Virus record (IMG/VR): IMGVR_UViG_3300022542_001157
Length of the DNA: 42,619 nt
From: a virus
Direction: 5' to 3' (one strand)
Position numbers and translations under genes: made by a program. The notes beneath the pieces are model-generated. The model was not told the DNA's origin and made no database searches. It saw nothing but the letters and a program-made list of their open reading frames with translations. This document shows, piece after piece, positions 541 to 42,276 of this stretch (its first letter is position 1; each line of letters starts with the position of its first letter).

Positions 541-585
541 TTGATCTCCGTTTGAGTTATCTCTTTTTCTCGTTGTCTGTTCTAA

Positions 586-2352
586 TTATAGCATGGTCGC
601 CGCCGCCTTGTCAATCCCGATTTCAGCGATTAACTCTGCAACATAATCTGACATCGATTTTTTGTCTTTTATCGCTTGGCGGATCTGCTCTTCCACCGAA
701 TTCTCGATTAAAAGATCAATATAAAGCACCGAATTCTTCTGCCCGATCCGGTGGTTACGGTCCTCAGATTGGATGCGGTCGGTGAATTTGAAACTGTTCG
801 AAAAATAAATCACCAAGTCTGATTCATTTAAGGTCAAGCCCACTGAACCTGTCTGCAGGGTAGCCACAAAGAACCTGGTCCCATCATGGCGTTTGAACCA
901 TTTCATGTTATCTTGGCGTTGGTCCCCGGTCAAGCCCCCGTGGAATTCTGAAACGGTTTCCGGGCCGAAATTCTCTCGCAAAATGTCCGCTACCATCAGG
1001 TTTTCCCGCCGGTACTTGGTCCAAATGATGACTTTTTTCGAATGATCCAATTCTTCCAAAATCCGCAACATTTCCCGGATTTTGGGGTTTGATTTCGGGG
1101 CCATCAGCATCTCCACGTCCGGCGTTTTTTGTCCTTCAACCTTCGTCATAACAAACCCCGACGCGATCTGCTGTAGAAAATTTAAACTGACCAAAATATT
1201 GTCGGCCACGATTTCTATTGGGCCCCCATCCCGAACTTTGGATTTAATAAACGCTATCCTTTCACGGGCCATGGATTTGTAAATCTTGGACTGTTCCTTG
1301 GACATCGCAATCTTGACCGTTTCATAGACTTTATCAGGCAAATCCAGGACATCTTTTTTGAAGGATTGAAACACGAATTTTCCGACGCTCTCGGCCAACT
1401 CCTCAATGTTTTTATATCCGACTTCTTTCTGGTAACTTCCCGCCGAGGTTCGCATTTCCTCCAGCACGGCGTACTGATTGCGGAAAGCATACCAGGAGCC
1501 TATGCCAATGATGTCAGGATCAAGGAACTGAAACTGCGTATAAAGATCCAGGGGAGATTGCGTCAAAGGCGTCCCTGTCATGATGAGTTTCCTTACGGCA
1601 TAATTTCCCAACCAAACCACGTTTTCGGACCGGTTCGCATTATGGGTCTTGATAAAGTGGGATTCATCCACGACTACCAGCACTTTGCCACCAGACACAA
1701 AATCCTCGGCCATGGCGAATGCTTTCCCTTTCTTGTAGCCCTGACTGACTGACTCCACACCCAGGATGGCCACAGGCAATCGCCCCTTTTTGGATGCAGA
1801 CCTCGTGTCCTCCATGAATTTAGCGAAATCGTTCTGCATTTTCTTCGTGGAAGTCGCAATAATCTGGGTCCTGTATTCCAATGGCCCATGGATTTTGATT
1901 TCGTCCACCCAGTTTCCACGAATGGAATAGGGGCAAATGACCAAAACGCGGTCTATCGTGCTTTCCATGTACAACACCGACGCCCAATCAATCCCAATTT
2001 TGGTTTTGCCTGTCCCCATTTCCATAAAAAGGGCGGCGGCGTCTTTGCCGTAAACAAAATCAAGCCCCTCTTTCTGGTGCATCATGGGTGTAGTTTTTGG
2101 TTTATACCAAATCGGAAATTTCAGATTTGAAACCCTGATTTTCCGTGTGTTGTCAATAGCAATTTGGGCCAATGGCATGATCTTTGCATCTTGAACCGTG
2201 CGCACAATCGCCTCAACATTCTTTCGGTATGGCGGAACCACCCATTTCGAGGTCCTTTTATTGAACCTTTTGTTTGGAATTGCATGGAGCTTGGCATTGT
2301 CCCGAAATGAACACTCCAATTGAAAATTTTTCCCATCAAAGTCTATAATCAT
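586..2352 (-). CDS. SNF2/Rad54-family (superfamily 2) helicase
   Basis: 588 aa. Walker A MGTGKTK, motif II VVDESH, motif VI-type DRNHRIGQ. The start abuts the stop of the upstream gene (TGAATG). Confidence 0.9.
   Translation of the reverse strand: MIIDFDGKNFQLECSFRDNAKLHAIPNKRFNKRTSKWVVPPYRKNVEAIVRTVQDAKIMPLAQIAIDNTRKIRVSNLKFPIWYKPKTTPMMHQKEGLDFVYGKDAAALFMEMGTGKTKIGIDWASVLYMESTIDRVLVICPYSIRGNWVDEIKIHGPLEYRTQIIATSTKKMQNDFAKFMEDTRSASKKGRLPVAILGVESVSQGYKKGKAFAMAEDFVSGGKVLVVVDESHFIKTHNANRSENVVWLGNYAVRKLIMTGTPLTQSPLDLYTQFQFLDPDIIGIGSWYAFRNQYAVLEEMRTSAGSYQKEVGYKNIEELAESVGKFVFQSFKKDVLDLPDKVYETVKIAMSKEQSKIYKSMARERIAFIKSKVRDGGPIEIVADNILVSLNFLQQIASGFVMTKVEGQKTPDVEMLMAPKSNPKIREMLRILEELDHSKKVIIWTKYRRENLMVADILRENFGPETVSEFHGGLTGDQRQDNMKWFKRHDGTRFFVATLQTGSVGLTLNESDLVIYFSNSFKFTDRIQSEDRNHRIGQKNSVLYIDLLIENSVEEQIRQAIKDKKSMSDYVAELIAEIGIDKAAATML
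2173..2188 (+). promoter_or_regulatory. sigma54-type -24/-12 motif, antisense inside the SNF2 gene
   Basis: TGGCATGATCTTTGCA matches TGGCAY-N5-TTGCA exactly. Confidence 0.4.
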
Positions 2353-3138
2353 TCAGGACCCCCACTCTAAAGCGAGTTTGATCTTTTCTTCTCCTAATTT
2401 ATCAAGTATTATCTTTGGGACGCTTACAGACATATTTAATCCATTTTTTGCGACAATCTGTATCTCAATGTATCCAATTCTAATATGGGATTTTTCCAAC
2501 CCATCCAACGCAAAAACAAGCTCCTTCCTTGCGTTCTTTCCTGCGGCTGCTTTTTCTGCCTGTTCTTTTGTTGTGAATGATAAACCTTTCGCTCTTATGT
2601 AATAGACTAGATCAAGATTAGCAGTTGACATTAAGATAGGTTTATAATGATTATTAATATGCATTGTAATAGTCCATTCCCCAGTAGGATCATACCCAAT
2701 AGGACACGTTTTTACAGCCTCTTTTTTATTCATGTCCTCAGCGTGGTGGTCGGCAATGTGTTTCCACTTCCAACTTTGGGGATAAGCCGCCAATATACTT
2801 GGCGTTGGGTTCACCAACCTCTTGGGCTCGTGTTTGTCGGTATAATGATTTTTGACCACAACCCAATGGATTTTGGGGGGTTTTTCAATGTCGGAAGCTT
2901 TAAATGTCGTAGGTTCGTCTACTACATTTAAAGTGGGGAGAACACCATGTGTTCTTGAACCCCCATACAATTGCAAAAACTTTTCTTTTTTAATTACTTT
3001 CTCTTTCAATTTTTTGTTTTCCTGCTCCAAAGCCCAGCGCCCCGCAACCACTTTGGATGCCACTTTAGCCACAATAGCATCTTGGTAACTCTGCAGGTCC
3101 TTTCTAAGCTCGTCTGTGTATTCAAATTCTTCGTCCAT
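2353..3138 (-). CDS. Hypothetical protein, 261 aa
   Basis: Long ORF. ATG preceded by the conserved AAAGGAGATTAGAA cassette. Confidence 0.75.
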   Translation of the reverse strand: MDEEFEYTDELRKDLQSYQDAIVAKVASKVVAGRWALEQENKKLKEKVIKKEKFLQLYGGSRTHGVLPTLNVVDEPTTFKASDIEKPPKIHWVVVKNHYTDKHEPKRLVNPTPSILAAYPQSWKWKHIADHHAEDMNKKEAVKTCPIGYDPTGEWTITMHINNHYKPILMSTANLDLVYYIRAKGLSFTTKEQAEKAAAGKNARKELVFALDGLEKSHIRIGYIEIQIVAKNGLNMSVSVPKIILDKLGEEKIKLALEWGS

Positions 3139-3150
3139 TTCTAATCTCCT

Positions 3151-3345
3151 TTAAAATCCACCCAATAATTCTTGCCGAATATAAACCATTGAATTGATCA
3201 ATACCAAAATCATGGCCGCGCCAACTAACGCTTTGTTATGATACCAACGTCTTTTGTAAATACTGCCTTTTCGGTCTGTGACATTCAACATAATAACAAA
3301 AACACTGCAAAATTGGACATACGCCCAAAACTCCTCTATCACCAT
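3151..3345 (-). CDS. Small membrane protein, 64 aa, two predicted TM helices
   Basis: Hydrophobic stretches WAYVQFCSVFVIMLNV and ALVGAAMILVLINSMVYI. Perfect AAAGGAGATTAGAAATG cassette. Confidence 0.65.
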   Translation of the reverse strand: MVIEEFWAYVQFCSVFVIMLNVTDRKGSIYKRRWYHNKALVGAAMILVLINSMVYIRQELLGGF

Positions 3346-3380
3346 TTCTAATCTCCTTTAAAATTGGCCTATGCAAGTAC

Positions 3381-3446
3381 TTATTGGGCGATCACTCCGT
3401 AAAGGGCCACCAAAGCAAAAACTACTAAAACAATGTCAATTTCCAT
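3381..3446 (-). CDS. Micro-ORF, 21-aa hydrophobic peptide MEIDIVLVVFALVALYGVIAQ (below ORF-track cutoff)
   Basis: ATG at 3446 preceded by AAAGGAGATTAGAG, which is embedded in the last codons of the methyltransferase gene. TAA at 3383..3381. Single TM-like segment. Confidence 0.45.
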   Translation of the reverse strand: MEIDIVLVVFALVALYGVIAQ

Positions 3447-4362
3447 CTCTAATCTCCTTTAATCTGTTAAAGATATGCACGATAACGTCAACAGTCCAGC
3501 CGTTCCCGATCGATTTGTACCGTTGTGTGTTACTTACACCAAAAGTATAATCGTCCGGCAGTGTTTGGAGCCGTTCACACTCCAAAGGCGTGAGTTTTCT
3601 CCATTTGTTTGGTGGCAATGTCATTTTTGGTTCATGATGGCCGCCTGTCCCAGCTCTAACTGTGGGGCATTTCCCAAGTTGGCCATATGTCCTCTTATTT
3701 AAATCATAAGTTTTAATATCGGCCTCGCCCGTTAGTGCGCAACCACTAAACACCAATTGGCGTCTGTGCTTCTCAAAGTAACTTTTCAAGTTCCCACCTT
3801 TGAAGTAATTCGCGTCAAGGCAGAACGTCTTGTCTCTATCTACCGCCCCGTCTTCAATAATATCCTTCAACACCAAACCCTTGTCTTTCGGTTGTTCAAT
3901 TCCTTCAATATTGGTCCAATAAAGCCTGTTTCTATACTGGGCACTCACCAAAGCAGAATTGATTTCAATAGATTCAACCCCCAAAAAATCATCAAGTTCT
4001 TTCCTGATCTCCTTTTTCATCCTGACATTTTCAATCAAGAAATATTTCGGTTTTAGATCATGAATTAATTCAATCGCTTTATAAAACAACTGTGATCTCG
4101 GGTCATCCCAATTCAAACGCTTCCCGGCCATAGAAAACCCCTGGCATGGTGGGCCGCCGATAATCATATCAATCTTTGGTAGATTCCATTCTGGGCAATT
4201 CTCGATATCTCCAAGCCTGACAATTTCAGGGTAGTTCTTTTCTGATGTCTGAATCGCCCATTTGTCGATTTCAGAAGCATAGTAATTATCAACTTTAATT
4301 CCTGCGCGCTTAAGTGCCACCAACCCGCAACTTATTCCATCGAACAAACTCAATACGTTCAT
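3436..4362 (-). CDS. DNA (cytosine-5)-methyltransferase
   Basis: 308 aa. Motif I LSLFDGISCG, motif IV GGPPCQGFS, motif VI FLIENV, motif X-like QRYKSIGNGWTV. Confidence 0.92.
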   Translation of the reverse strand: MNVLSLFDGISCGLVALKRAGIKVDNYYASEIDKWAIQTSEKNYPEIVRLGDIENCPEWNLPKIDMIIGGPPCQGFSMAGKRLNWDDPRSQLFYKAIELIHDLKPKYFLIENVRMKKEIRKELDDFLGVESIEINSALVSAQYRNRLYWTNIEGIEQPKDKGLVLKDIIEDGAVDRDKTFCLDANYFKGGNLKSYFEKHRRQLVFSGCALTGEADIKTYDLNKRTYGQLGKCPTVRAGTGGHHEPKMTLPPNKWRKLTPLECERLQTLPDDYTFGVSNTQRYKSIGNGWTVDVIVHIFNRLKEIRDGN

Positions 4363-4376
4363 ATTTCTAATCTCCT

Positions 4377-5933
4377 TTAATAATCGATTTCAGGGTCCTT
4401 GGGCGCAATACCCAGGTCTTCCCCAAATTGTGACCCCTCGATTGGGACTGTCCAAATTTGGATCACGGTGTTGGAACCAATACGGCACCTTTTGTGTCCG
4501 ATCTTCATTTCCTTCAACGCTAACCAAAGATTGGCCCCTTTCATTTCCTCTGATCGGTTTTTTTTCAGGAAGGTCACAAAATCTGCACCCCGGAAGTAAA
4601 TGAAACGCCCCTCGGATTCCGCTTGAACCGTCGGCATTCCAAGCAATAATTGTTGCCGGTCGTCGGTCTTGTCCCCTTTAGAATTCAAATCTGCTTTTTT
4701 CAGAAACTCCACCAACCTGGCCCGGATGACCCCCGCGATACTGGCCTCCTCGGGTGCCGAAATTTTCTCGGCCTTCAACATCAATGCATTGAGTTGCACT
4801 TGCCAGCGCTCGTTTTTCATGGCCGGGATCAGCATCGTCATTTTCTCGGCTACGGCTTCCCGCACCCGCCTGAAATCCATGACCTCGGCGGTCCCCAAGT
4901 AAATTTTGGAATCGTTGACCAATAGCACCCATTTTACAGGGTCGGTTTCGATTTTCTGCAAGCCTTTGAATTCGGGCATTACACCCAAGTCCAATTCAGA
5001 TTTCTCGTCTGGTGTAATACCGTGTTTCTTGGTGATGCAGAGTGCCGAATTACAGAGGGCCTTACAGGGTTCCTCCTGGCATTTATACTTATAATCGCGG
5101 CGGCCAGCCGAGCTTACCACTTTCTTGGCTTCTACGAAATCCAGGGGCGAATCGAAAATTCTGGCGTTAAGATCATATGCCTTGTCCCTCCAGGTTTCCG
5201 GGTGGACTTTTTTCAAATAAATGGTGATGTTGTACAGGGCCAAATTCCGAAGTCCACCCGGCACCCCATTTGCAATCATTTTACTGATACAAGGGGGGGA
5301 CTCGTCGTGGCTATCATCTATAATCTCAATCAACCGGGGTCCTGCAATCCTTTTAGCCGCTACCAGATCCAAGAAATGGCCCAAAAGACTTATCTTCTTG
5401 CCACCGTCCACCCCATAACGGAGTGGTTCGTCTCCTTGCCAATCGAAAAATGGAAGGTTGATAAAATTCCCATTGGCCATTTTACCTTCGTGATCTTTAG
5501 CCAAAACCGCCTGTTTCGGGAAAATTTCAGCCCTAGGGAAACCCAAAGCCCCGGCCCATTTGGTCAATGCCTTGCGAATCAAACTGGCTTTAACGGGTTC
5601 GATCCCAAAGAAATAAACGTGGGCACCACCCGATTTCGATCGACAGACCATCAAAGGCAGATCCAATTCCCGCACCTTGAAATCCAATTCGAAAAGATCG
5701 ATATCGGGCTCGCCGCCCCCATGGGCGTCAATATCAATCGCCCCAAACCAACAAAAACCATCGTCCATGATAGGAACCGCCGCGACTCCAGCAGTCCCTA
5801 TAAAATGGTTTTCGAAGTCTTTCTTGGTAACGGGTTCTAACACCGTATAAGTGTTGTTTTCAACTTTGTTTGGAATAAAGCGGCCAAAATTCCGGTCGTT
5901 CCCCTTGAATAATGCCATGAACCGCTCTATCAT
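4377..5933 (-). CDS. Archaeo-eukaryotic-primase-superfamily primase-polymerase (PrimPol-like)
   Basis: AIDIDAHGG (DxD) and SKSGGAHVYFF (sGGxH) motifs. Preferred start is ATG 5933 behind GGAGGAAAGCAA. The ORF track extends to a TTG at 5972 with poor RBS spacing. Confidence 0.8.
   Translation of the reverse strand: MIERFMALFKGNDRNFGRFIPNKVENNTYTVLEPVTKKDFENHFIGTAGVAAVPIMDDGFCWFGAIDIDAHGGGEPDIDLFELDFKVRELDLPLMVCRSKSGGAHVYFFGIEPVKASLIRKALTKWAGALGFPRAEIFPKQAVLAKDHEGKMANGNFINLPFFDWQGDEPLRYGVDGGKKISLLGHFLDLVAAKRIAGPRLIEIIDDSHDESPPCISKMIANGVPGGLRNLALYNITIYLKKVHPETWRDKAYDLNARIFDSPLDFVEAKKVVSSAGRRDYKYKCQEEPCKALCNSALCITKKHGITPDEKSELDLGVMPEFKGLQKIETDPVKWVLLVNDSKIYLGTAEVMDFRRVREAVAEKMTMLIPAMKNERWQVQLNALMLKAEKISAPEEASIAGVIRARLVEFLKKADLNSKGDKTDDRQQLLLGMPTVQAESEGRFIYFRGADFVTFLKKNRSEEMKGANLWLALKEMKIGHKRCRIGSNTVIQIWTVPIEGSQFGEDLGIAPKDPEIDY
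5259..5274 (+). promoter_or_regulatory. Weaker sigma54-type motif, antisense inside the primase-polymerase gene
   Basis: CGGCACCCCATTTGCA. GG-N10-GC and TTGCA are kept; the first T is replaced by C. Confidence 0.25.
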
Positions 5934-6138: not shown

Positions 6139-6369
6139 TTATAAAGTAGGGTATTTTCCGTGCTCAGCGGCATATTGTGCCCGCCGGACAATATCTTTGT
6201 GTTTTGGCTTCGCGGAGTATTGATATTGCCAGCCTCCAGCGGTTGGAACTTTTGTTCTGGTAAAAAATTTCCTAAAGTTCTCTTCGCGTAAGACGTACGG
6301 AGTAAGGAACCCGTGTCTATTAGCATCCCTGGGATCGGGACGGGAAACCACTGTCGTTTTAGTCTGCAT
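6139..6369 (-). CDS. Hypothetical protein, 76 aa; first gene of the leftward unit
   Basis: ATG behind GAGGAGAAA. Competes with an overlapping 90-aa frame (6108..6380) that has no RBS spacing. Confidence 0.4.
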   Translation of the reverse strand: MQTKTTVVSRPDPRDANRHGFLTPYVLREENFRKFFTRTKVPTAGGWQYQYSAKPKHKDIVRRAQYAAEHGKYPTL

Positions 6370-6397
6370 TTTCTCCTCATCTCTTTGTTTTTAGAAA

Positions 6398-6421
6398 CCC
6401 CCGAATTTTAAGTGACGGGGG
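6398..6421 (-). terminator. GC hairpin followed by UUUCU on the minus strand (terminator/attenuator-like) in the leftward leader
   Basis: CCCCCG (6398..6403) pairs with CGGGGG (6416..6421), 12-nt loop. The minus strand reads CCCCCG-N12-CGGGGGTTTCT, immediately upstream of the 76-aa ORF RBS. Confidence 0.35.
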
Positions 6422-6581
6422 CTCCCACTGTCTGCGCCATAAAAGACACAGGAATTACGAACCTGACATCAACATACTCAACCTATCATTTTACTAATAA
6501 GCAACTGAGTGTTGCGATTCGAAAAGCTTTATCAGATCATGCCTGGGGTCAGTCTGTCAAGCCCGATTTAGTTGGTTATTG

Positions 6582-6597
6582 TGGCACGAGATTTGCA
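6582..6597 (+). promoter_or_regulatory. sigma54-type promoter motif P1 (rightward)
   Basis: TGGCACGAGATTTGCA is an exact match to TGGCACG-N4-TTGCA. Confidence 0.55.
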
Positions 6598-6605
6598 TAC
6601 GGGCA

Positions 6606-6621
6606 AGCAAGAAGCGTGCCA
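6606..6621 (-). promoter_or_regulatory. sigma54-type promoter motif (leftward), face to face with P1
   Basis: The minus strand reads TGGCACGCTTCTTGCT (TTGCW allowed). It is the only minus-strand copy found. Confidence 0.4.
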
Positions 6622-6663
6622 TTAGGTAAAATATTGCTTTGAAACCCCGAGTAAAATTGGTAC

Positions 6664-6693
6664 TTGACAGACTCAAGCCTTCTGTGGTACAAT
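6664..6693 (+). promoter_or_regulatory. sigma70-type promoter (rightward) with extended -10
   Basis: TTGACA, 18-nt spacer, TGgTACAAT. Confidence 0.5.
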
Positions 6694-6773
6694 AAAAAAT
6701 AAGGCCAAAACATGGACCAGCATCCTGGGATGGATGGCTCGGAAAAAGCGTCGTGGGACGGCCTTCCCGGTTT

Positions 6774-6789
6774 TGGCACGAAAATTGCA
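6774..6789 (+). promoter_or_regulatory. sigma54-type promoter motif P2 (rightward)
   Basis: TGGCACGAAAATTGCA, exact consensus. Confidence 0.55.
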
Positions 6790-6829
6790 ACGCGTGGACG
6801 GGGGTTGAAGGGCTGGTAATCTAGAACCG

Positions 6830-6845
6830 TGGCACGATCTTTGCA
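6830..6845 (+). promoter_or_regulatory. sigma54-type promoter motif P3 (rightward), about 235 nt upstream of terS
   Basis: TGGCACGATCTTTGCA, exact consensus. Confidence 0.55.
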
Positions 6846-6970
6846 TGTGGGTTCTCTTTTTTTGTAAGGCTTACGGAGCTGTCAAGCTTGACAATATTAA
6901 GTTAAGAACACTACGAGTATCACACATATTCACAACACAACAAGAACGGGATTCTAGATGTATGAATTCC

Positions 6971-6992
6971 TATCACTACGGTATCACTACGG
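6971..6992 (+). repeat. Tandem direct repeat 2 x TATCACTACGG in the late leader
   Basis: Direct reading. A third partial copy (CACTACG...TATCAC) lies at about 6910..6925. Confidence 0.85.
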
Positions 6993-7079
6993 GTAACACA
7001 GAACAACCTGCGAAGGTCTTACGGGACTTTCCTTCTTAACTGTTCTTTGGGCTTTACAAAAAAAGGAAGGCGGAGTGAA

Positions 7080-7466
7080 ATGGATTTAGGACAATTGATC
7101 GAACCTGAAATTTTGGATTCGGTGCAAGATATGGCCGAATGGGGTGTTGGTGAATTGACCATGGCCGCTAACCTGGGTTATACGGCTTCGCAGTGGGAAG
7201 AGGCCAAGGGAAAATACCCAGATATTTCAGATGCCATAAGGATCGGTTTAAATCGCGGGATTGAAAATGTAACAAGGGCACTTTATGAAGAGGCTATTGA
7301 CCCCAAAGGGAGTGTTGCGGCCAAAAAGGCGTATTTACAAGCAAAAGATCCTGCGAATTGGCGTGAAGTAAAAGCCCTGGAGGTTTCGGGCGAGTTAAAG
7401 GTTGGTGCAATTACTGAGAAAGACGCCGAAGTGGTGAAAGGGGTATTTGATAAATTGACAGGATGA
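7080..7466 (+). CDS. terS: Terminase small subunit (putative)
   Basis: 128 aa from ATG 7080 behind GGAGTGAA. Sits immediately upstream of terL with an ATGA overlap. Small helix-rich protein typical of TerS. Confidence 0.6.
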   Translation: MDLGQLIEPEILDSVQDMAEWGVGELTMAANLGYTASQWEEAKGKYPDISDAIRIGLNRGIENVTRALYEEAIDPKGSVAAKKAYLQAKDPANWREVKALEVSGELKVGAITEKDAEVVKGVFDKLTG

Positions 7467-8212
7467 TTGATCTCGAACAAAAAATCGAGGGTTTTACGCC
7501 AGAACAACTGGCTGTTTTAAAGCATAGGCTAGAAACCAATTTCATGGACCACACCAAATTCTTTTTGGGGCTTCGTGAAAAACAACCATTTATTGAAGGG
7601 CCGCACCACCCATTGTTAGCAAAGACGTTTTTGCGGGTGTTGAACGGAGAAATAAAGCGGCTGATAGTAAACATACCACCAAGTTATACCAAAACAGAAC
7701 TTGGGGTGATTCAATTGGCATCCTTTGCTTTTGTAAGGAATCCGGGGTGCAGGTTTTTACACGTTTCAGGGGGTGATGTTTTACCTTTGGACAATTCTTC
7801 CAAAGTGAAAGAACAGGTCATCCATCCGATTTCCAAATTGCTTTGGGGGCTTTCGGCTAAAGATGATACGAGGGCCAAAGGATTTTGGAAGACGAATGCC
7901 AATGGGGCATTTTATGCAGTTTCCAGTGGCGGACAGATTATAGGTTTTCGGGCTGGAAGGTCACTTCCAGGGTTCCAAGGTGCAATTATCATTGATGACC
8001 CGCAAAAACCAGATGATATGTATTCGGATACCAAGAGGATGTGGTTTCCAAACAGGTACTCCAGTACAATAAAATCTCGGGTGGATAATCGAGAAACGCC
8101 GATCATAGTCATTATGCAGAGGCTCCACGAAGATGATTTTTGCGGTTGGCTTTTGAATGGCGGTTCCGGTGAAAAATGGCACCATCTGAATTTACCGGTT
8201 TTGATAAAGTGA
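7463..8212 (+). CDS. terL: Terminase large subunit, N-terminal ATPase part (frame 2)
   Basis: NIPPSYTKTEL (PPRxGKS-type Walker A variant), IIIDDPQKPDD Walker B, W-x4-LP motif near the end. Terminates at TGA 8210..8212. Confidence 0.85.
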   Translation: MIDLEQKIEGFTPEQLAVLKHRLETNFMDHTKFFLGLREKQPFIEGPHHPLLAKTFLRVLNGEIKRLIVNIPPSYTKTELGVIQLASFAFVRNPGCRFLHVSGGDVLPLDNSSKVKEQVIHPISKLLWGLSAKDDTRAKGFWKTNANGAFYAVSSGGQIIGFRAGRSLPGFQGAIIIDDPQKPDDMYSDTKRMWFPNRYSSTIKSRVDNRETPIIVIMQRLHEDDFCGWLLNGGSGEKWHHLNLPVLIK

Positions 8213-9009
8213 AACATTACCCATATGCGATACCAATTGAGCATGGATTGTTGCCCGGTCCACTTTGGCCGTATAAACACAACCTTGAGGAAATAGAAAC
8301 ACTTAAGAACAACCCGTATGTTTTCGACGGGCAGTACATGCAAGATCCCGCCCCAGTTGGTGGAAAGATTTTTAAGACTGAATGGTGGAGATATTATGAC
8401 ATTTTGCCGCAGGGGTTTTTACGGAAGATCATTACGGCGGACACAGCATCAAAAACCAAGACCGTAAATGATTTCAGTGTTTTTCAATGTTGGGGCCAAA
8501 CCAGGGATGGTATCTTCCTGATTGATCAGAAGAGGGGCAAATGGGAAGCACCAGAACTGATTAGAACGGCCAGGGATTTTTTTACAAAGCACAACCAGCC
8601 AGAACAGCCCGTAAATGGGTTTTACATTGAAGACAAGTCAAGTGGAATAGGCTTGATACAAACTTTGCGGGATGGTTCGGATCAAATGGCGGGTAGGGTT
8701 TACATCCCGGTGATTGCAGTTCCTAGGGATACGGACAAGACTTCCAGGGTGTTTGCCCTGATAAACTATGTGGTTTCAGGGTTGGTTTTCCTGCCGAATA
8801 AGGAAGTGGTGCCCACGGCAGATTTCATGACAGAATATATTTCGGAATTTAGTCGGTTTTCTCCACAAATGACACATAAACACGACGACCAGATAGACCC
8901 GACCTTGGACGCCATACAAATTTTATTGGTCGGTGGCCTTGGCGATGAAGCAGAAATTATTGTAACCTCCCCCGGTATTGGGGCAACGATGGAATCTGAA
9001 TTTTTCTAG
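8176..9009 (+). CDS. terL: Terminase large subunit, C-terminal nuclease part (frame 1; needs a -1 shift between 8173 and 8212)
   Basis: RNase-H-like nuclease motifs ITADTASKTKTVNDFSVF, FYIEDKSSG, HDDQIDPTLDA. Frame 1 is open from 8173. Confidence 0.85.
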   Translation: MAPSEFTGFDKVKHYPYAIPIEHGLLPGPLWPYKHNLEEIETLKNNPYVFDGQYMQDPAPVGGKIFKTEWWRYYDILPQGFLRKIITADTASKTKTVNDFSVFQCWGQTRDGIFLIDQKRGKWEAPELIRTARDFFTKHNQPEQPVNGFYIEDKSSGIGLIQTLRDGSDQMAGRVYIPVIAVPRDTDKTSRVFALINYVVSGLVFLPNKEVVPTADFMTEYISEFSRFSPQMTHKHDDQIDPTLDAIQILLVGGLGDEAEIIVTSPGIGATMESEFF

Positions 9010-12170: not shown

Positions 12171-13187
12171 ATGGCAAACATTATCTTAAAAGTAGAAATC
12201 TTTGGGGTTGGGACTTGGAACGGGTTCAAATTCGTACAAGAAGACCTGGATGAAATTGTAAGAAACACAATAGCACTTCAAAAGAAAGGGAACGCCAAGC
12301 CTCGCCTAAAGTTGGGGCATTCGAACAACCAGATTTTAGAAGGACAAGAAGATGGGGACCCTGCTTTGGGTTTCATGTCTAATTTTGCGGTATCGGGTGA
12401 CAAGATAATTTCCGACTTTATCGATCTCCCAGATATCATTTTCAATTTGATTGAGAAAAAACGTTTTGTAAGTGTTTCAGTCGAATTGGACCATATACCA
12501 AATTTTGGTTGGTATATACAAGCCGCCGCTTTATTGGGGGCGGATTTGCCAGCGGTCAAAACGCTGAACGATTTACAAATGTTTTTAAGCGACACAAACA
12601 CGGGCGTAAGTGAAAATGCGCTTTGTTTTTCAGAACCAACAATTAACAAAAAAAAGGAGGTCATAGGAATGACGCCCGAAGAAAAAGCAGAAATGGACAG
12701 ATTAAAGGCCGCCAATACTAAGTTGGAGGGTGACTTAACCAAGTCCAACGCGGATTCCGCGAAATTCAAAGAGGAAAAGCGGGTTGCCCAATTTTCTGAA
12801 AAAAAAGCTGAATTGCTCAAGCCATTTAGCGAGCAGGTAAAAGTGGGGAAGCTGACCCCCGCAAGCTTCACAAAATTGGAGACTTCCCTGGATGCTCAAT
12901 CCAAGCACTTTTCCGAAGGTTCGGAATTGCAAGTGCCGATTAACATTTTGACAGAGTTGATGGCGGATGAATCCAGAATCAATTTTTCAGAAACTGGGGC
13001 CGTTGATGGGGATGGCGGGGATTCTGGTGTGACTCCAGACAAGGCTTTGGATATGGCAATCCAAAAAGTCATGGGAACTTCCCAAAAGACATATTCGGAG
13101 GCTTCCAATATCGTTATGGCCACAGAGCCAAAACTGTTTAAGGCCTACGCGAAGTGGACCGAAGACATCAGCTACGGGAGGGTGTAG
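12171..13187 (+). CDS. Prohead protease/scaffold protein (Mu gpI-like or DUF2213-like)
   Basis: N-terminal VGTWNGFKF...KLGHS region followed by a Lys/Glu-rich coiled-coil half, located just upstream of the capsid gene. Confidence 0.6.
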   Translation: MANIILKVEIFGVGTWNGFKFVQEDLDEIVRNTIALQKKGNAKPRLKLGHSNNQILEGQEDGDPALGFMSNFAVSGDKIISDFIDLPDIIFNLIEKKRFVSVSVELDHIPNFGWYIQAAALLGADLPAVKTLNDLQMFLSDTNTGVSENALCFSEPTINKKKEVIGMTPEEKAEMDRLKAANTKLEGDLTKSNADSAKFKEEKRVAQFSEKKAELLKPFSEQVKVGKLTPASFTKLETSLDAQSKHFSEGSELQVPINILTELMADESRINFSETGAVDGDGGDSGVTPDKALDMAIQKVMGTSQKTYSEASNIVMATEPKLFKAYAKWTEDISYGRV

Positions 13188-14630: not shown

Positions 14631-14939
14631 ATGGCTTTAAAAGGTTTTAAAGTTACACGACCACCAATCCCAAATATCATGTCTCCCTCGGGGAAGCTGA
14701 ATGCGGCAAAATCCGAAATTAAATCGCTGGAGAAAGAATTGTCAAATCTGAAAGAGGGCGGTTTGGGTCTTCCGGATGGAACAGTGGCGATTCAAGGATT
14801 CTTTCCACTTTTTGATTTGACAAAGAAAGAATTGGTCGAAGAAGGGAAAGGTGTTGGGCTCGATGCCCTTGACCCCAAAAGCCCCAAAGACCAATTGTTA
14901 AAAGACATTTTTGAAATCTTGTTCAAAGATCTTCTATGA
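14631..14939 (+). CDS. Hypothetical protein, 102 aa
   Basis: ORF with a TGGAG RBS. ATGA overlap with the next gene. Confidence 0.65.
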   Translation: MALKGFKVTRPPIPNIMSPSGKLNAAKSEIKSLEKELSNLKEGGLGLPDGTVAIQGFFPLFDLTKKELVEEGKGVGLDALDPKSPKDQLLKDIFEILFKDLL

Positions 14940-15886
14940 GTTCTGTAAAGATCTTTACCAATGAGGTTGCTGGAGGTTGGTCCCCCCATGATATTGAAGA
15001 AATGTTGGGCGGTTCTGAGGAGTGCGTAGTGCTTTTGGCAGAACAGATGGCCGCCAGTGGGCATGAAGTCAAAGTGTACCATACGCCGAAGCATGATGAA
15101 ATGGGGGCTTTTCGGAAGGGAGTTGAATACTCCCCAAGAGCGCAGTTTGTGCCGAATCCGGATGACGTCGTAATCACTTTTAAAGATTATACGCCTTGGG
15201 TTCGGGGTGTGAATGCCCGAATTAAGATTCACTGGTCATCGGATGTAGAAGGCGTGTGGGATACTTCGTTGGTAGACCATTTTGTTAATTTGACCGAATA
15301 CCACCAACGCCGCAATTTTTTTGTGCGGACCGACAAGCGGCGGGTCATCCCGCACGGAATAGATGTCGAACCAGGCGAAAAGACCGAGCATGGGACAATG
15401 CTTTATTGCAGTTCCCCCGACAGGGGCCTGATAGAGTTACTGCAGGACTGGAAAACTATCCGAAGTCATTTTCCAGAAATGCAATTAAAAGTGGCTTACG
15501 GATTTGATTTGTTCGACAGGGTTATGGGCACTAATGGTTTTGAATTTAAACGGGCAATTTTGAACTTGGCTAAACAACCCGGCATTTCTTTTCTGGGGAC
15601 TTTGAGCAAGGATGAATTGAACGAGCAGTACCGCAAAGCGGAATATTGGGTATTACCATTGCAACGCCCAGATTCTGAGTTGTTTTGTCTGAATGCGATA
15701 AAATCCAGAGTGTTGGGGTGTATTCCAATCGTCAACAAAGTTGGGGCACTTGAAAATACTGTGGGTGATTTTATCGATTATTCGGAATTTGTAGGGGGGA
15801 ACCCCGTTTTGAAAGAGTCTAATCGGCCAGTTCCGGCCATGGATTGGGCTCAAATCTATGAAAACTTTTGGAAAAAATTACTATGA
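14936..15886 (+). CDS. GT-B-fold glycosyltransferase (GT4-like)
   Basis: N-terminal GG-x-E...LAEQMAASGHEVKVY pattern. C-terminal E-x7-type region EYWVLPLQRPDSELFCLNAIKSRVLGCIPIV. Confidence 0.7.
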   Translation: MSSVKIFTNEVAGGWSPHDIEEMLGGSEECVVLLAEQMAASGHEVKVYHTPKHDEMGAFRKGVEYSPRAQFVPNPDDVVITFKDYTPWVRGVNARIKIHWSSDVEGVWDTSLVDHFVNLTEYHQRRNFFVRTDKRRVIPHGIDVEPGEKTEHGTMLYCSSPDRGLIELLQDWKTIRSHFPEMQLKVAYGFDLFDRVMGTNGFEFKRAILNLAKQPGISFLGTLSKDELNEQYRKAEYWVLPLQRPDSELFCLNAIKSRVLGCIPIVNKVGALENTVGDFIDYSEFVGGNPVLKESNRPVPAMDWAQIYENFWKKLL

Positions 15887-18774
15887 AAATTATCGTATAT
15901 GTCCCAGGCATGGCCTTTGATGGGAACACTTTGAAAGCAGGTAAAAGTCTCGGGGGCTCTGAGACTATGGGACTTATTGTGTCCCAAGAATTGGCAAAGC
16001 GTGGGCATCGTGTAATTTGTTTTTGCAACACAAACGGACCGTCGTTTACTGACAACGTGGAATATTTACCGATCGGCCCAGCAGATAATAACACCCCCTT
16101 TGGGGCCAATTTCGAACGATACGCGGCAGAGATCCCACATGATGTTTTACTGGCCCAAAGAGCGGCGGGGGTTTTCCATAAAAAGTTTAATTCCAAATTG
16201 AATTATTTTTGGACTCATGATCTTGCATTAAAACGCCACGCCGGGGCAATGGCAAGTATGCTTTGGAACACAGATCGAATTTTGGGGGTGTCAGAATGGC
16301 ACAAAAAACAAGTGTCCGAGATCTACGACTTGAACGATGGTTTCATTTCAGTTTTACGAAACGGCATAAATCTTGCAGATTTCAGTCCAGAGGCCGGTCG
16401 CTTGAAATTTAATTCAAAGACTTTGTTGTATACCTCCAGACCGGAACGGGGACTCGAAAATCTCGTGAAGCCCGGCGGAATCATGGAACAGTTGTATAAA
16501 CTGGACCCCGAAATCCAGTTGGTGGTGGCTGGGTACGACAATACCACCGAACAAATGGCCCAATTTTACAATTATCTGTGGGGAAGGTGTGAAGAACTCC
16601 CAAACGTAAAGAATTATGGCCCCCTTGGGAAAAAACAGCTGTACGAATTAATGGGGAAAGCGGCGTTGCATGTGTACCCCACCGAATTTGAGGAAACTAG
16701 TTGTATTACCATGATGGAAGAACAAGCCAGCGGCACCCCAGTGGTCATTACAAATGTTGGGGCACTCCCTGAAACTCTAGCCGGGGGTGGTATGTGGGAT
16801 GCCGATGTCGAGAATTTCGCTGGCGCAATTGAAGGGTTGTTGTCGAATTTCGAAACATGGTACAAAAGACATGAATTGGCCCTGAAAAAAGCCAAAAATT
16901 ATTGTATTGAAGCCGCAGTGGACGACCTTGAAGGGCTTATCCTAGACGATTTTGTAAGACTGTCTAGGAACGTTAACGCGGTGGCGGCTGGGTTGATCCG
17001 AAATTCGGACTTGGTTGCGGCAGAGAAGTTGACTGGGGTTCCTCCAGACGTCGATGCCCCTACCTTTTCTCAATCCACCAAAGAATCCGAGCGTTTTTAT
17101 GAAAACATTGCGGAATACAACATTGACATCGGGAACAAACATTCCCTGGGTAAATACGACAGAATCTTGTCAATGCCGAGGTTACAGCCTGTGATTGACC
17201 AGTTGGCCGACCTTCCAGACGGGGCCAAGGTGTTGGATTACGGTTGTTGTGTGGGGCATGTCACAACCGCCTTAGCTGACAGGTTTCCAAATCTGCAGTT
17301 TGTTGGAGTCGATATTTCGAAATTGCAAATCGACATCGGGAACAAATTTATTGACGCTAACGGATTGACCAACGTCAAATTGATGAACAGTCCAGATGTC
17401 AACCACCCGAAAATTGACAACGATTTTGATGCAGTTGTTGCTCTGGAAATCTTGGAACACATTCATGATTTTGGCGGTTTTCTGGCTGGGCTGTTGAAAC
17501 ACCTAAAATTGGGTGCGCCGGTTATCATATCCACTCCAGCGGGGCCTGTGGAAGCATTCCGGGGTGAAGAGGACCACCCACTCGAACATTTACACCACTT
17601 TGAGGAACAGGATATATTGGACATCATCGGGGACCAAGATGGGTTTAATGTTGTCTATATCAACGATTTTGATTCGAAGACAGGTGATAAACTCGGAAAT
17701 TTTGTGTGGTGGTGGAAACGAAGCCAGAAGAAACTTGGAAAAATTGACTATAACAAAAAACTGATTTTCCAAAACCCGATTCAAACGGTTTCCTGTTGTA
17801 TGGTTGTTTCCGGCAATACCGGGTCACTGAAAAGGACATTGGATTCTGTCTCTTTCGCCTCAGAATTTATTATCGGAGTTGACGGGGCCGAGGATTCCGA
17901 AGCGTTCCGAATTGCTAAACAATACGGGGCAGATGTGTTTTGTTTGACTGGAAGTCCACGAGAAATCGGATTTGATGAAGCCAGGAATGAAACTATTGAA
18001 AAGGCGGGGTGCGATTGGATTTTGTGGATTGATGACGATGAAGTGTTTCAGTGGCCAGAAAGGGTGTTGAAATATTTTAGAAACAACCAGTTTGACTCTT
18101 ACAGTATCGCGCAACACCATTTTAGCGCCGAACCTGCAGGGCTTTTAAAAACTGATTTGCCCGCCAGAATTTTTAGAAATCACAAAGGGATTAAATTTTA
18201 CGGCGTGGTCCATGAACACCCGGAAGTCGGAGTCAATGAGGGGCCGGGTAAAACTTTTGTGATCCCTGCCAATGAAGTGGCTATTTGTCATAATGGGTAT
18301 GATACCGAAATCACACGTCGGGAGCGCTTTCAACGAAATTTCCCCCTGATGGAACGGGAAATCAAAAAGCACCCAGATCGTTTGTTGTCAAAGTTTTTGT
18401 GGATTCGGGATTTGGCCCACTTGAACAAATTTGAATATGAACGGTTTGGAAGAATTACGCCAGAAATTAAGGCCAGGGCACAAGAAGCAATCAAAATTTG
18501 GCGGGGTTTGCTGGAGGATGCGCCAATTCGGATTGTTTCGGACTCCATACCATATGTTTCGGAGGCCGTGGATATCCTCACCGAAGGAGGCGGTTACCTG
18601 TTTAATTTCTGCTTGGATATGTCCTACCGGGGATTTGGGGATTTGGTGGACGGGAAAAGCAACGGAAACATCATCACGGGGAAATTGGAAACCAAAGAGG
18701 ACCTTCTTTTATTGATGAATAAATTCGTTTCAGAAAAAACAAAACCTTTTGAAGAAAACGCAAAGTATTTATAG
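15883..18774 (+). CDS. Three-domain enzyme: GT4-like glycosyltransferase, SAM-dependent methyltransferase, GT2-like glycosyltransferase
   Basis: GGSETMGL...KRGHRV and PTEFEETSCITMMEEQASGTPVV (GT-B). VLDYGCCVGH and VVALEILEHI (class I MTase motifs). CCMVVSGNTGSLKRTLDSV...WILWIDDDEV (GT-A DxD). Start ATG 15883 overlaps the upstream stop (ATGA). Confidence 0.8.
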   Translation: MKIIVYVPGMAFDGNTLKAGKSLGGSETMGLIVSQELAKRGHRVICFCNTNGPSFTDNVEYLPIGPADNNTPFGANFERYAAEIPHDVLLAQRAAGVFHKKFNSKLNYFWTHDLALKRHAGAMASMLWNTDRILGVSEWHKKQVSEIYDLNDGFISVLRNGINLADFSPEAGRLKFNSKTLLYTSRPERGLENLVKPGGIMEQLYKLDPEIQLVVAGYDNTTEQMAQFYNYLWGRCEELPNVKNYGPLGKKQLYELMGKAALHVYPTEFEETSCITMMEEQASGTPVVITNVGALPETLAGGGMWDADVENFAGAIEGLLSNFETWYKRHELALKKAKNYCIEAAVDDLEGLILDDFVRLSRNVNAVAAGLIRNSDLVAAEKLTGVPPDVDAPTFSQSTKESERFYENIAEYNIDIGNKHSLGKYDRILSMPRLQPVIDQLADLPDGAKVLDYGCCVGHVTTALADRFPNLQFVGVDISKLQIDIGNKFIDANGLTNVKLMNSPDVNHPKIDNDFDAVVALEILEHIHDFGGFLAGLLKHLKLGAPVIISTPAGPVEAFRGEEDHPLEHLHHFEEQDILDIIGDQDGFNVVYINDFDSKTGDKLGNFVWWWKRSQKKLGKIDYNKKLIFQNPIQTVSCCMVVSGNTGSLKRTLDSVSFASEFIIGVDGAEDSEAFRIAKQYGADVFCLTGSPREIGFDEARNETIEKAGCDWILWIDDDEVFQWPERVLKYFRNNQFDSYSIAQHHFSAEPAGLLKTDLPARIFRNHKGIKFYGVVHEHPEVGVNEGPGKTFVIPANEVAICHNGYDTEITRRERFQRNFPLMEREIKKHPDRLLSKFLWIRDLAHLNKFEYERFGRITPEIKARAQEAIKIWRGLLEDAPIRIVSDSIPYVSEAVDILTEGGGYLFNFCLDMSYRGFGDLVDGKSNGNIITGKLETKEDLLLLMNKFVSEKTKPFEENAKYL
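16362..16377 (+). promoter_or_regulatory. Weaker sigma54-type motif, sense, inside the glycosyltransferase gene
   Basis: CGGCATAAATCTTGCA. Confidence 0.2.
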
Positions 18775-30418: not shown

Positions 30419-30628
30419 TTAATCACACAAATAAACAGACCCGTCTCTTTCGAGGTGCGGAGTTAAGTGGTAACCATAACCTACAAAAGTTATTATATAC
30501 TCGACTCCATCAATGCAAGTTATTTCATATGGGATGACTTTTACTTCTGGTTCCCCCGTGGCTTCGGGTGGCGAACAAGAAACAACAAAAACAATAGCAA
30601 AAACCAACAAACTTATGTAATATTTCAT
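30419..30628 (-). CDS. Small lipoprotein, 69 aa
   Basis: MKYYISLLVFAIVFVVSC signal peptide with lipobox VVSC. TAGGAGACAAGATG RBS. The longer ORF-track start only translates an upstream hairpin. Confidence 0.7.
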   Translation of the reverse strand: MKYYISLLVFAIVFVVSCSPPEATGEPEVKVIPYEITCIDGVEYIITFVGYGYHLTPHLERDGSVYLCD

Positions 30629-30679
30629 CTTGTCTCCTAATCTCGGGTAGGGCCGCCCTGGGGCGGCCAATTATCTCGG

Positions 30680-31546: not shown

Positions 31547-31590
31547 TTTATCTCCTTATCTCTATGTTACAACTAACGGGACCGGTTGTC

Positions 31591-31681
31591 CCGTTTTCTG
31601 ATTTCAGTTTACCACATCCTGTCAATTCTGTCAATATATCGAATTCACGAAATTTATTCAGAATTGACAAAGATCAATTTC
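31591..31681 (-). repeat. Early promoter/operator cassette, copy 1 (about 92 percent identical to 32282..32372)
   Basis: Direct alignment of the two 91-nt segments (about 7 mismatches). Confidence 0.9.
31606..31634 (-). promoter_or_regulatory. Consensus sigma70 early promoter PE1 (leftward)
   Basis: The minus strand reads TTGACA, 17 nt, TGgTAAACT. Flanked by three ATTGACA heptamers (two direct, one inverted at 31659..31669). Confidence 0.75.
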
Positions 31682-32237: not shown

Positions 32238-32281
32238 TTTTTATCTCCTTATCTCTGGTTTGTTTCATTTGGGGCTTCTCC

Positions 32282-32390: not shown

Positions 32391-32406
32391 TGGCACGAAA
32401 TTTGCA
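32391..32406 (+). promoter_or_regulatory. sigma54-type motif pointing rightward (antisense) into the 3' end of the replication/Z operon
   Basis: TGGCACGAAATTTGCA, exact consensus. Ends 1 nt before the stop codon of the 32407..32883 gene. Preceded by the palindrome TTCCGTTAACGGAA (32370..32383). Confidence 0.5.
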
Positions 32407-32883
32407 TTAGAATCCAGACAGAGCATTGAAAAATTCCCTATTGTTTTTCCGGAAATGGTCCATTGACGCGTACCGCAATCTGCACAACCTAAACCACTCC
32501 TCTTTGGGCGATTTTCCCAATGCAAACATTTTCATTACAGCCGGACTAATCAACAGAATGTCCTCATCAATTTGCACCAAAAACCACGATTGCCCTTGGA
32601 ATTTTTGTACACCTAACGCGAAACGGACTTGTCCCCCAACCCGCTCGGGGTGCGGGACTTTTACCGGGGACTCTGGATTCTTGGGCCATTTCGGAAGTGC
32701 TTTAACCTCGATCCAACCTGAAATGCCGCCCGGCATCCCCGTAGAATCTTGGGGGCCGACCGTATACGCCCAATCCGAAACAAAATTTTCCGTTCTGGTT
32801 TCGATCTCGGTTAATTTCCAAAGCCCGCGCAAGGCAATTTTGATATTGTTTTTGAAGGTTTGCTCCCTTGTTATTCGGCTCAT
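32407..32883 (-). CDS. Putative PD-(D/E)xK-type nuclease (VRR-NUC/resolvase-like)
   Basis: 158 aa with a GWIEVK-type E-x-K motif. ATGA-coupled to datZ. Confidence 0.45.
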   Translation of the reverse strand: MSRITREQTFKNNIKIALRGLWKLTEIETRTENFVSDWAYTVGPQDSTGMPGGISGWIEVKALPKWPKNPESPVKVPHPERVGGQVRFALGVQKFQGQSWFLVQIDEDILLISPAVMKMFALGKSPKEEWFRLCRLRYASMDHFRKNNREFFNALSGF

Positions 32884-36349: not shown

Positions 36350-36595
36350 TTAAAATGGGATATCATCAAGTTCGTCGTCCCCAACGGGGGCGGACGCGGG
36401 TTTCGGTTGGGGTGGCACGTCCTTTGCAGTTAGGGCAATCGACATGAACTTTCCCGTCCTCCCGTCCTTCAACCACGCTGACATCCAATATTCGACCCCT
36501 TCAACATTTAGAGTCCCAGTATACAGCGGGTGTGTTTCTTTCGTTTTCCGATCGTTTTTGAATAATGCCCCGGAATTTGTGTTATCGTACGCCAT
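36350..36595 (-). CDS. Small SSB-like protein, 81 aa, with a bacterial-SSB-type acidic tail (DDELDDIPF)
   Basis: ATG 36595 behind AAGGAGAGAGAATAAA. C-terminal DDIPF tip. The ORF-track 5' extension to 36820 would overlap the polymerase gene by 56 nt. Confidence 0.55.
   Translation of the reverse strand: MAYDNTNSGALFKNDRKTKETHPLYTGTLNVEGVEYWMSAWLKDGRTGKFMSIALTAKDVPPQPKPASAPVGDDELDDIPF
36413..36428 (+). promoter_or_regulatory. sigma54-type motif, antisense inside the SSB-like gene
   Basis: TGGCACGTCCTTTGCA, exact consensus. Confidence 0.4.
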
Positions 36596-40363: not shown

Positions 40364-40409
40364 TTCTAATCTCCTGTTTCCTTTAAAACTTAGGGCCATG
40401 CTGTTAAAT

Positions 40410-40425
40410 TGGCATGGCCCTTGCA
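40410..40425 (+). promoter_or_regulatory. sigma54-type motif, intergenic, antisense orientation
   Basis: TGGCATGGCCCTTGCA. Confidence 0.4.
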
Positions 40426-42258: not shown

Positions 42259-42276
42259 TTCTAATCCCCTTTTAAT

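Follow-up and report, generated by a model that had tools for sequence, protein, structure and literature searches.

What reads the region from which the virion genes of an uncultivated phage depart? The phage is IMG/VR virus record IMGVR_UViG_3300022542_001157, a single stretch of 42,619 nucleotides that we call the window and that represents a circularly closed genome of ~42.6 kb. Since its replication genes run leftward and its virion genes rightward, positions 6370-7079 are the sole divergent control region of the genome. An initial annotation, made from the letters alone, had placed in this region three tandem perfect elements of the sigma-54 (RpoN) type, TGGCACG-N4-TTGCW, together with one inverted copy, upstream of the late operon. 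Both the elements and the layout hold: all four are exact matches, the leftward gene starts at 6369, and terS at 7080 is followed by the virion genes. Sigma-54 is unrelated to sigma-70 and is the only bacterial sigma factor that depends strictly on an ATP-driven activator; its holoenzyme binds as a closed complex, and opening needs an ATP-dependent enhancer-binding protein. Judged by sequence, the elements conform to the canonical sigma-54 -24/-12 site to a degree far above what chance would give, and they are very probably bound by sigma-54 holoenzyme. Their use as late promoters, with antisense shut-off of early genes as a secondary role, is the function that we favor, with appreciably less assurance. 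The four elements of the control region are as follows, with starts predicted by setting the C of the GC element at -12.

6582..6597, + strand: P1, perfect sigma-54 element TGGCACGAGATTTGCA, exact match, rightward, predicted start ~6608
6606..6621, - strand: P(-), perfect element TGGCACGCTTCTTGCT, exact match, leftward, predicted start ~6595
6774..6789, + strand: P2, perfect element TGGCACGAAAATTGCA, exact match, predicted start ~6800
6830..6845, + strand: P3, perfect element TGGCACGATCTTTGCA, exact match, predicted start ~6856

A pattern search of the window with TGGCACGNNNNTTGCW returned these four (6582-6597 on the + strand, 6621-6606 on the - strand, 6774-6789 and 6830-6845 on the + strand) and two additional perfect copies, at 32391-32406 (+) and 36413-36428 (+). 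The comparison with shuffled controls that had been suggested at the outset gave six perfect matches in the window and none in 100 dinucleotide-preserving shuffles, and ~0.01 copies would be expected under uniform base composition (85,238 positions x 4^-11 x 1/2), which rules out a chance origin. When mismatches were allowed, two 11/12 matches with the common TGGCAT variant were added, at 2173 (+) and 40410 (+); the original list was thus right in its four sites and had missed four more (32391, 36413, 40410 and 2173). All six 12/12 and both 11/12 sites carry the GG and GC dinucleotides exactly 10 bp apart inside TGGCACG-N4-TTGCW, and seven of these eight strong sites share the + orientation. 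Across the six perfect copies only the 12 consensus positions are common and the N4 spacers all differ, and a fixed consensus around a varying N4 is the pattern expected for sigma-54.

It might be asked whether the motifs are instead a polar DNA signal unrelated to transcription, such as replication-origin iterons or packaging or Chi-like sequences. The cluster does sit at the strand-switch and GC-skew minimum, adjoining the primase gene and terS, seven of the eight sites lie on one strand, and five successive + sites follow one another at intervals of 4.0-4.4 kb. Yet this reading leaves the exact identity with the sigma-54 consensus to coincidence, the corresponding intergenic region of related phages with the primase has no copy of the motif, and direct repeats in the leader described below are better candidates for terminase sites. 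We consider a polar signal to have almost no chance of being the explanation.

The placement of the control-region elements accords with a promoter role. P1, P2 and P3 precede terS and the virion operon and point into them, and P(-) is co-directional with the first leftward gene, its predicted start falling 226 nt before that gene. The genes on either side and the leader between P3 and terS are listed here (ORF, open reading frame; MFE, minimum free energy).

6139..6369, - strand: first leftward replication gene, 76 aa, without assigned function, taken from the ORF list
6855..7065, + strand: structured late leader with a 19-bp closing stem, MFE -62.7 kcal/mol, z=-4.6
7080..7466, + strand: terS, terminase small subunit (phrog_309, E=7e-11), the first packaging/virion gene

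When RNA 6855-7085 was folded, none of 200 shuffles folded as well. The closing stem pairs 6855-6873 with a stretch just upstream of the terS ribosome-binding site, and the predicted start of P3, 6856, lies within the first bases of that stem, which begins at 6855; this correspondence is the best internal evidence for P3 as a real start. The leader further contains direct repeats at 6909-7000 (TATCACTACGG twice in tandem, plus CACTACGAGTATCACA and CACTACGGGTAACACA) and a perfect 14-bp palindrome, TGTCAAGCTTGACA, at 6880-6893; these are candidates that could serve as terminase (pac/cos) or regulator binding sites. No known RNA families or tRNAs were found, and the leader has no Rfam match. The leftward leader that would extend from P(-) measures 226 nt and is moderately structured (z=-2.6).

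P1 and P(-) stand face to face with an 8-nt gap between them; P2 lies 192 nt downstream of P1, and P3 56 nt downstream of P2. Because the N4 spacers of the P1 and P(-) arms are not complementary, the pair is not a hairpin, and a reading as a hairpin or terminator was rejected on this ground. The predicted starts at 6608 and 6595 each fall inside the opposite element, so that, by geometry, the pair would hold one holoenzyme at a time. Two promoters of the sigma-70 type flank the pair.

6664-6693, + strand: rightward sigma-70-type promoter, TTGACA-18-TACAAT with an upstream TG (extended -10), 11/12 in the consensus scan
6531..6560, - strand: putative leftward sigma-70-type promoter, TTGACA (6560..6555), 18 nt, TG-n-TCTGAT (6536..6531)

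The first had been noted in the initial annotation and is real by the scan, its TG included. The second was read from the sequence and was not returned by the consensus scan, for which reason we count it as inferred; it is probably weaker than the promoter at 6664. An 11-nt perfect inverted repeat (AGTCTGTCAAG at 6551-6561 and CTTGACAGACT at 6663-6673) brackets the P1/P(-) pair and has TTGACA in each arm, the right arm supplying the -35 of the 6664 promoter and the left arm the leftward -35. Directly 3' of the 6664 promoter is a possible 35-codon ORF, MDQHPGMDGSEKASWDGLPGFGTKIATRGRGLKGW (6712-6819), which contains P2 and stops before P3.

Similar clusters occur in uncultivated phages. Among the matches listed, face-to-face pairs were present in 49 IMG/VR loci and tandem pairs 30-60 nt apart in more than 119, where chance would yield far fewer than one of each. 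The motif-bearing loci that we fetched form at least 77 sequence groups with GC contents of 35-64%. In 394 distinct viral sites, the flanks that the search did not fix read mrNrY before TGGCACG and r after it, which reproduces the extended sigma-54 consensus reported by Barrios et al. 1999. That one motif with one set of flanks is found in 77 unrelated groups points to a universal host factor as its reader.

These flanks bear on another possible reader, one that had been raised from the start: a DNA-binding protein or sigma-like factor encoded by the phage, with the match to sigma-54 being mimicry or coincidence. About ten early ORFs are without assigned function, palindromic operator-like sequences in the control region show that phage regulators act there, and the motif is absent from relatives, as would be expected of a lineage-specific factor. 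Such a factor would nevertheless have to keep 12/12 consensus positions in six copies while leaving the N4 spacer free to vary, and to account for one motif with one set of flanks across at least 77 unrelated viral groups spanning 35-64% GC. No unassigned protein of the window is common to the other motif-bearing loci, and no RpoN-like ORF was found in the window. Given that the flanks of the 394 viral sites reproduce the extended consensus, we judge a phage-encoded reader improbable.

The face-to-face arrangement is itself characteristic of viral DNA. The gap measures 2-6 nt in 51 of 55 viral cases, and the spacer positions agree between arms at 21% in 44 distinct viral pairs, so the arms are independent. 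In 596 Gb of bacterial and archaeal genomes, the face-to-face pattern with a 2-10 nt gap was encountered at 6 loci, two of them perfect hairpins in one metagenome-assembled genome of Flexilinea and two in actinomycetes, which to our knowledge lack rpoN. If the viral collection is taken as 2.9 million contigs averaging no more than 30 kb, a rough estimate makes the pair at least ~50-fold denser in viral DNA than in bacterial and archaeal DNA.

The genes near the viral sites also point toward late functions. In all 14 motif loci with a TerL homologue (about five lineages), all sites precede the TerL match, by 0.8-3.7 kb, and they are co-directional with TerL in 10 of the 14. Locus L048 has a 1.1-kb divergent region with a face-to-face pair ahead of TerL, the same design as in the window. 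Among 76 ORFs from 40 representative loci, the commonest annotated families downstream of tandem clusters are terminase, portal, terS and head-tail adaptor; replication genes and methylases are found there as well. By crude ORF calls, 48% of viral sites fall in non-ORF DNA, which makes up ~19% of the sequence.

Some of these contigs have arrangements of their own. Locus L114 carries ~10 co-directional perfect elements at 25-45 nt spacing (1960-2250), and L014 carries four palindromic face-to-face pairs in tandem (418-596). A set of ~11-kb contigs from metagenome 3300045988 (L085, L061, L087, L088, L094 and ~28 more) has tandem elements ~60 nt from one end, and many have them at both ends, inverted and facing inward. 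These contigs have their relatives among phi29-like phages that infect Gram-negative hosts (Astrithrvirus type); cultured Astrithrvirus was considered as a model for them and set aside, as Salmonella phage astrithr has no sites. L057, an unrelated viral contig, combines a PurZ homologue (32% identity, 7127-8185) with a tandem perfect pair (12539-12621).

Several observations weigh against the use of the window's sites as late promoters. One is that the cognate AAA+ activator with upstream sites, which marks sigma-54 promoters, was not found in the window. The initial annotation had seen no activator of this kind among the phage ORFs, and we likewise detected no GAFTGA-like motif in the six reading frames and no Sigma54_activat or RpoN domain in any ORF scanned against Pfam and PHROGs. 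A six-frame Walker A search was negative, but its pattern ended in K[ST] and would miss enhancer-binding proteins of the form GxxGxGKE; the activator test therefore depends on the GAFTGA and domain scans. The recommended search for upstream activator sites came back empty: 6370-7080 has no IHF, NtrC or NifA-type consensus sites, and the stretches preceding the sigma-54 sites have no 9-mer in common. For the two largest early proteins without assigned function, a PDB sequence search gave no relatives of solved structure, and single-sequence AlphaFold models reached pLDDT 36 and 49, too low for use. Nor was a GAFTGA or RpoN box present across 162 viral loci (1.4 Mb). With no activator encoded, both trigger and timing must come from an activator of the host or from a phage factor that has escaped recognition. 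It might be speculated that an anti-sigma-70 takeover leaves the sigma-54 holoenzyme as the sole active form, or that negative supercoils from the two divergent sigma-70 promoters build up at the pair between them.

Late transcription may also have a route besides sigma-54, given that the 6664 promoter faces the late operon. A strong terminator between that promoter and P3 was considered and rejected, as the hairpin and T-run just before P3 form a weak one (-8.9 kcal/mol, z=0.2), which makes sigma-70 read-through into the late genes possible. The viral survey, too, showed no clear strand bias of sites toward the next gene, with 136 co-directional and 109 opposite by the same crude ORF calls.

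A further difficulty is that four of the eight strong sites run antisense to genes, a placement not accounted for by an ordinary promoter role.

32391..32406, + strand: perfect element, intergenic and antisense, directly 3' of gene 32883..32407 (after its stop codon)
36413..36428, + strand: perfect element, antisense in the SSB gene, codons TAKDVP
40410..40425, + strand: 11/12 element TGGCATGGCCCTTGCA, antisense, at a gene junction
2173..2188, + strand: 11/12 element TGGCATGATCTTTGCA, antisense, at the SNF2 helicase N-terminus (~residues 55-60)

None of the four stands upstream of and co-directional with a gene in the manner of P1-P3, so 'late promoter' cannot be the whole story. The 32391 element matches P1 plus flanks at 19 of 20 nt (repeat family D9) and adjoins a terminator-like hairpin on the opposite strand. 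The 36413 site lies between the SSB-profile region (residues 7-64) and the acidic tail, and the 2173 site precedes the SNF2 domain, which begins at residue 92. With two sites intergenic, one before the SSB acidic tail and one in the helicase pre-domain, the positions appear to be without strong protein-level constraint, which fits selection on the DNA motif itself. The circular gaps between the + sites at 32391, 36413, 40410, 2173 and 6582 are 4022, 3997, 4382 and 4409 nt; with so few sites, the strand bias and the 4.0-4.4-kb spacing are suggestive rather than significant. From the four sites, rightward transcripts would run antisense to the early genes. Promoters would be needed repeatedly if such RNA, being untranslated, is terminated within a few kb. 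The early genes have sigma-70-type promoters of their own, including 614..585 (12/12), 32325 and 31634. The last two fall within a 92-nt block that is duplicated at 93% identity (31590-31681 and 32281-32372); each copy carries, on the minus strand, a sigma-70-type promoter TTGACA-17-TAAAYT with an extended -10 followed by a 5' hairpin, and the copies precede two early genes without assigned function.

The final difficulty is conservation. The initial annotation had asked that the sites be conserved in related phages, and no available relative carries the motif: it is absent from every relative examined (L175, L176, L177, L178, L001 and L167-L174), among them SH-Ab 15497, Kokobel2 and the metagenomic primase relatives L177 and L178, and from relatives whose TerL N-part (TerL-N) is 68-76% identical. 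The collections searched yielded no close relative of this phage. The best TerL-N homologue (82% identity) is on a 1.1-kb contig, and the best primase homologues reach 56%. Primase homologues at 40-56% identity have unidirectional genes and no sites, and TerL-N homologues at 57-82% identity are on short or differently organised contigs, again without sites. Searching viral contigs with the primase gave a single relative, which is not syntenic and has no sites; a portal search gave one short contig, and exact-protein look-ups of the window portal and TerL-N gave no contig. Since the relatives are this remote (primase at most 56%, TerL-N at most 82% identity) and differently organised, the conservation test is weak and not fatal.

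Relatives in the replication module are the SH-Ab 15497-type Z-genome siphoviruses of Acinetobacter, Salmonella (PMBT28), Klebsiella, Providencia (Kokobel2) and Pseudomonas (PSA28), with primase identities of 52-55%. Like the window, they have a syntenic primase, SNF2 helicase, Pam3 gp32-34-like genes, UvrD, PolA, SSB, PurZ-like protein and HD phosphohydrolase; unlike the window, they have all genes on one strand and no sigma-54-type sites, and the virion modules are unrelated. Inversion of the replication module in the window would have created its divergent control region, and the sites appear to have been acquired recently, in connection with that inversion. The cultured phages that share the replication module infect Gammaproteobacteria, which possess rpoN.

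The lack of an activator brings forward the strongest competitor to a promoter function, namely that the sites bind sigma-54 or its holoenzyme and mainly do not fire. They might act as a sponge, with the replicating DNA copies soaking up a small sigma-54 pool and blunting host sigma-54 stress responses, or as a roadblock or insulator, with stable closed complexes separating transcription units. Neither an activator gene nor an upstream activator site was found, and the face-to-face pair cannot, by its geometry, hold two polymerases at once. The dense viral arrays in L114 and L014 resemble binding-site arrays more than promoters and keep a sponge or roadblock role in play, the 32391 site comes right after a stop codon beside an opposite-strand terminator-like hairpin, and many sigma-54 sites of E. 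coli are intragenic with unknown role (PMC4591121). A sponge or roadblock would not, however, need a strand bias, yet seven of eight sites point one way, and it would not call for P3 to sit where its predicted start meets the first bases of the leader's closing stem. In other phages, terminase genes are found downstream of the sites and mostly read in the same direction, and fragments of Pseudomonas phage YuA drive reporter expression according to the annotation of its record. On balance we regard mainly non-firing sites as unlikely, though less so than a phage-encoded reader, and retain the late-promoter function.

In the sequence of events that we propose, the host sigma-54 (RpoN) RNA polymerase holoenzyme would bind the four control-region elements. 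Early expression would come from the back-to-back sigma-70-type promoters around the pair and from the sigma-70 promoters of the early region itself. Opening of the sigma-54 elements would be triggered, and its timing set, by an activator of the host or by a phage factor not yet recognised. P1, P2 and P3 would fire into the packaging/virion operon, with P3 as the proximal late promoter, starting at ~6856 and producing a ~225-nt structured leader ahead of terS. P(-) would direct the replication operon, the P1/P(-) pair not being occupied by two polymerases together. Antisense transcripts from 32391, 36413, 40410 and 2173 could help shut off the early genes late in infection. In this scheme, sigma-54 occupancy, start sites, timing, activator source and antisense role are all inferred.

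The remainder of the genome supplies the context for this switch. The leftward (minus-strand) genes extend from 6369 down to 1 and then from 42619 down to ~30419. They encode an AEP primase, C5 methylase, SNF2 helicase, UvrD helicase, PolA, SSB and DUF2303, followed by the three proteins listed below.

34002-35045: PurZ-like, short adenylosuccinate-synthetase homologue
33475-34005: dATP/dGTP pyrophosphohydrolase-like protein
32880-33491: HD phosphohydrolase

By its sequence content this module is the gene set of 2-aminoadenine (Z-genome) phages; the set spans 32880-35045 and 36765-38612 and includes a family A polymerase. A pentapeptide-repeat gene and a Pam3 gp32/gp33/gp34-like gene series span the window junction. 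The window ends (1-200 and 42440-42619) form one 15-nt tandem array, TTCCAAGTWCGCGCC, of ~20 copies, which encodes the pentapeptide-repeat protein (PF00805); with both ends in one array, the assembly was broken inside it, and the genome is circular or circularly permuted. A stereotyped translation-start block, AAAGGAGATTAGAAATG (minus strand), recurs at nine early genes, at sites that include 210-229, 3134-3153, 3341-3360, 3442-3461, 4360-4379, 40359-40378 and 42254-42273. The product of the last leftward gene (30419-30670) is 83 aa long, has a signal sequence of the lipoprotein type (…FVVSC) and may be a superinfection-exclusion or lysis-related lipoprotein.

The rightward packaging/virion operon runs on the + strand from 7080 to ~30186. 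After terS come a split TerL, a portal-MuF fusion, a protease and the major head protein, and further along are glycosyl- and methyltransferases, tail tube, tape-measure protein and tail proteins. TerL is encoded in two parts, as an ATPase ORF (~249 aa) and a nuclease ORF (7463-8212; 8176-9009). More than 30 TerL N-part homologues (57-82% identity) are likewise ~249 aa long, several relatives among L167-L171 have 1-5 genes inserted between the halves, and a 243-position profile in PHROGs covers the N-part alone. Two glycosyltransferase-type genes within the virion operon (14936-18774) encode proteins of 316 aa and 968 aa, the larger a fusion of glycosyltransferase, SAM-methyltransferase and glycosyltransferase domains; their presence suggests that the virion, or a polymer on the host surface, is modified.

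Placing virion genes under sigma-54 would give a phage a late switch beyond the reach of anti-sigma-70 factors, with the activator problem remaining. We advance only tentatively the wider proposition that many unrelated phages hijack the host sigma-54 polymerase through clusters of perfect elements without an AAA+ activator, that the face-to-face pair is essentially virus-specific, and that the early operon here is silenced by the antisense set. If true, it implies an undescribed way of opening sigma-54 promoters during infection, for which a non-AAA+ phage factor, an infection-triggered host activator or supercoiling from the flanking divergent sigma-70 promoters would be candidates. With clusters in at least 77 groups and no activator in 1.4 Mb of flanking sequence, the firing of sigma-54 sites in phages becomes an apparently general and testable question. 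The elements also offer compact, orthogonal promoter parts. The 2-aminoadenine gene set means that all promoters of this phage would carry Z in place of A, which makes a case for studying sigma-54 and sigma-70 holoenzymes on Z-substituted promoter DNA.

How does this arrangement compare with known systems? Bacterial sigma-54 promoters such as glnAp2, pspA and nifH have the same core consensus, spacing and leader-length distance to the operon. They differ in having a cognate AAA+ activator with sites ~80-150 bp upstream, often with IHF, none of which was found in the window. Overlapping face-to-face pairs, of which the window has one, are almost absent from bacterial genomes. Sigma-54 sites inside genes, as in the window, are found in E. 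coli and Salmonella; in E. coli many sites are intragenic and of unknown role (PMC4591121), and sites within genes are also described in PMC3844500. Unlike those, the antisense sites of the window are perfect or near-perfect, lie in one orientation at 4.0-4.4 kb intervals and are spread over one operon. T4 late transcription (gp55/gp33 and the gp45 sliding clamp) resembles our proposal in being a late switch with an activator acting on the polymerase-promoter complex; T4, however, encodes its own sigma (gp55) and activator and has a simple TATAAATA box as its late promoter, with nothing comparable in the window. A T4 review mentions sigma-54 once (PMC2988020), reportedly by way of analogy.

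The closest parallel is Pseudomonas phage YuA (with M6; Mesyanzhinovviridae), a virulent siphovirus. The initial annotation was aware of no phage paradigm for RpoN-dependent late genes, a statement contradicted by the YuA GenBank record, which annotates three promoters as 'high activity (2000 MU), -24/-12 consensus sequence' within the virion/lysis region. Both phages have sigma-54-type promoters within or ahead of virion or lysis genes and sigma-70-type promoters as well, and no phage enhancer-binding protein is annotated in YuA. The sigma-54 dependence of YuA was reportedly confirmed in an rpoN mutant by Ceyssens et al. (2008, J Bacteriol 190:1429). A 2024 study states that YuA depends on sigma-70 and sigma-54, with a sigma-54-like promoter recovered by 5'-end sequencing (PMC10914365). 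The literature searched showed no phage sigma-54 case other than YuA, so the strategy has so far been documented there alone, and with sites that match the consensus weakly: the YuA promoter fragments reach at most 8/12 positions, against six 12/12 sites in the window, and the YuA gene strand has no site with two or fewer mismatches. The YuA sites are dispersed in a unidirectional late region, whereas those of the window are clustered in a divergent control region, and YuA has neither a face-to-face pair nor a described antisense set. SNF2 helicase, PolA and Pam3-gp34-like genes are common to both at 28-30% identity. In the window, as in YuA, sigma-54-type promoters would serve the virion genes of a phage without its own activator; the virion modules are unrelated, and homologous promoters at equivalent positions were not found. 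By sequence comparison, the two arrangements are analogous and not demonstrably homologous. Phage late promoters read by sigma-54 are thus already known from YuA. Three features are new: perfect sites gathered in a cluster, with one face-to-face pair enclosed by divergent sigma-70 promoters; antisense sites that all share an orientation; and the wide occurrence of comparable clusters among uncultivated phages.

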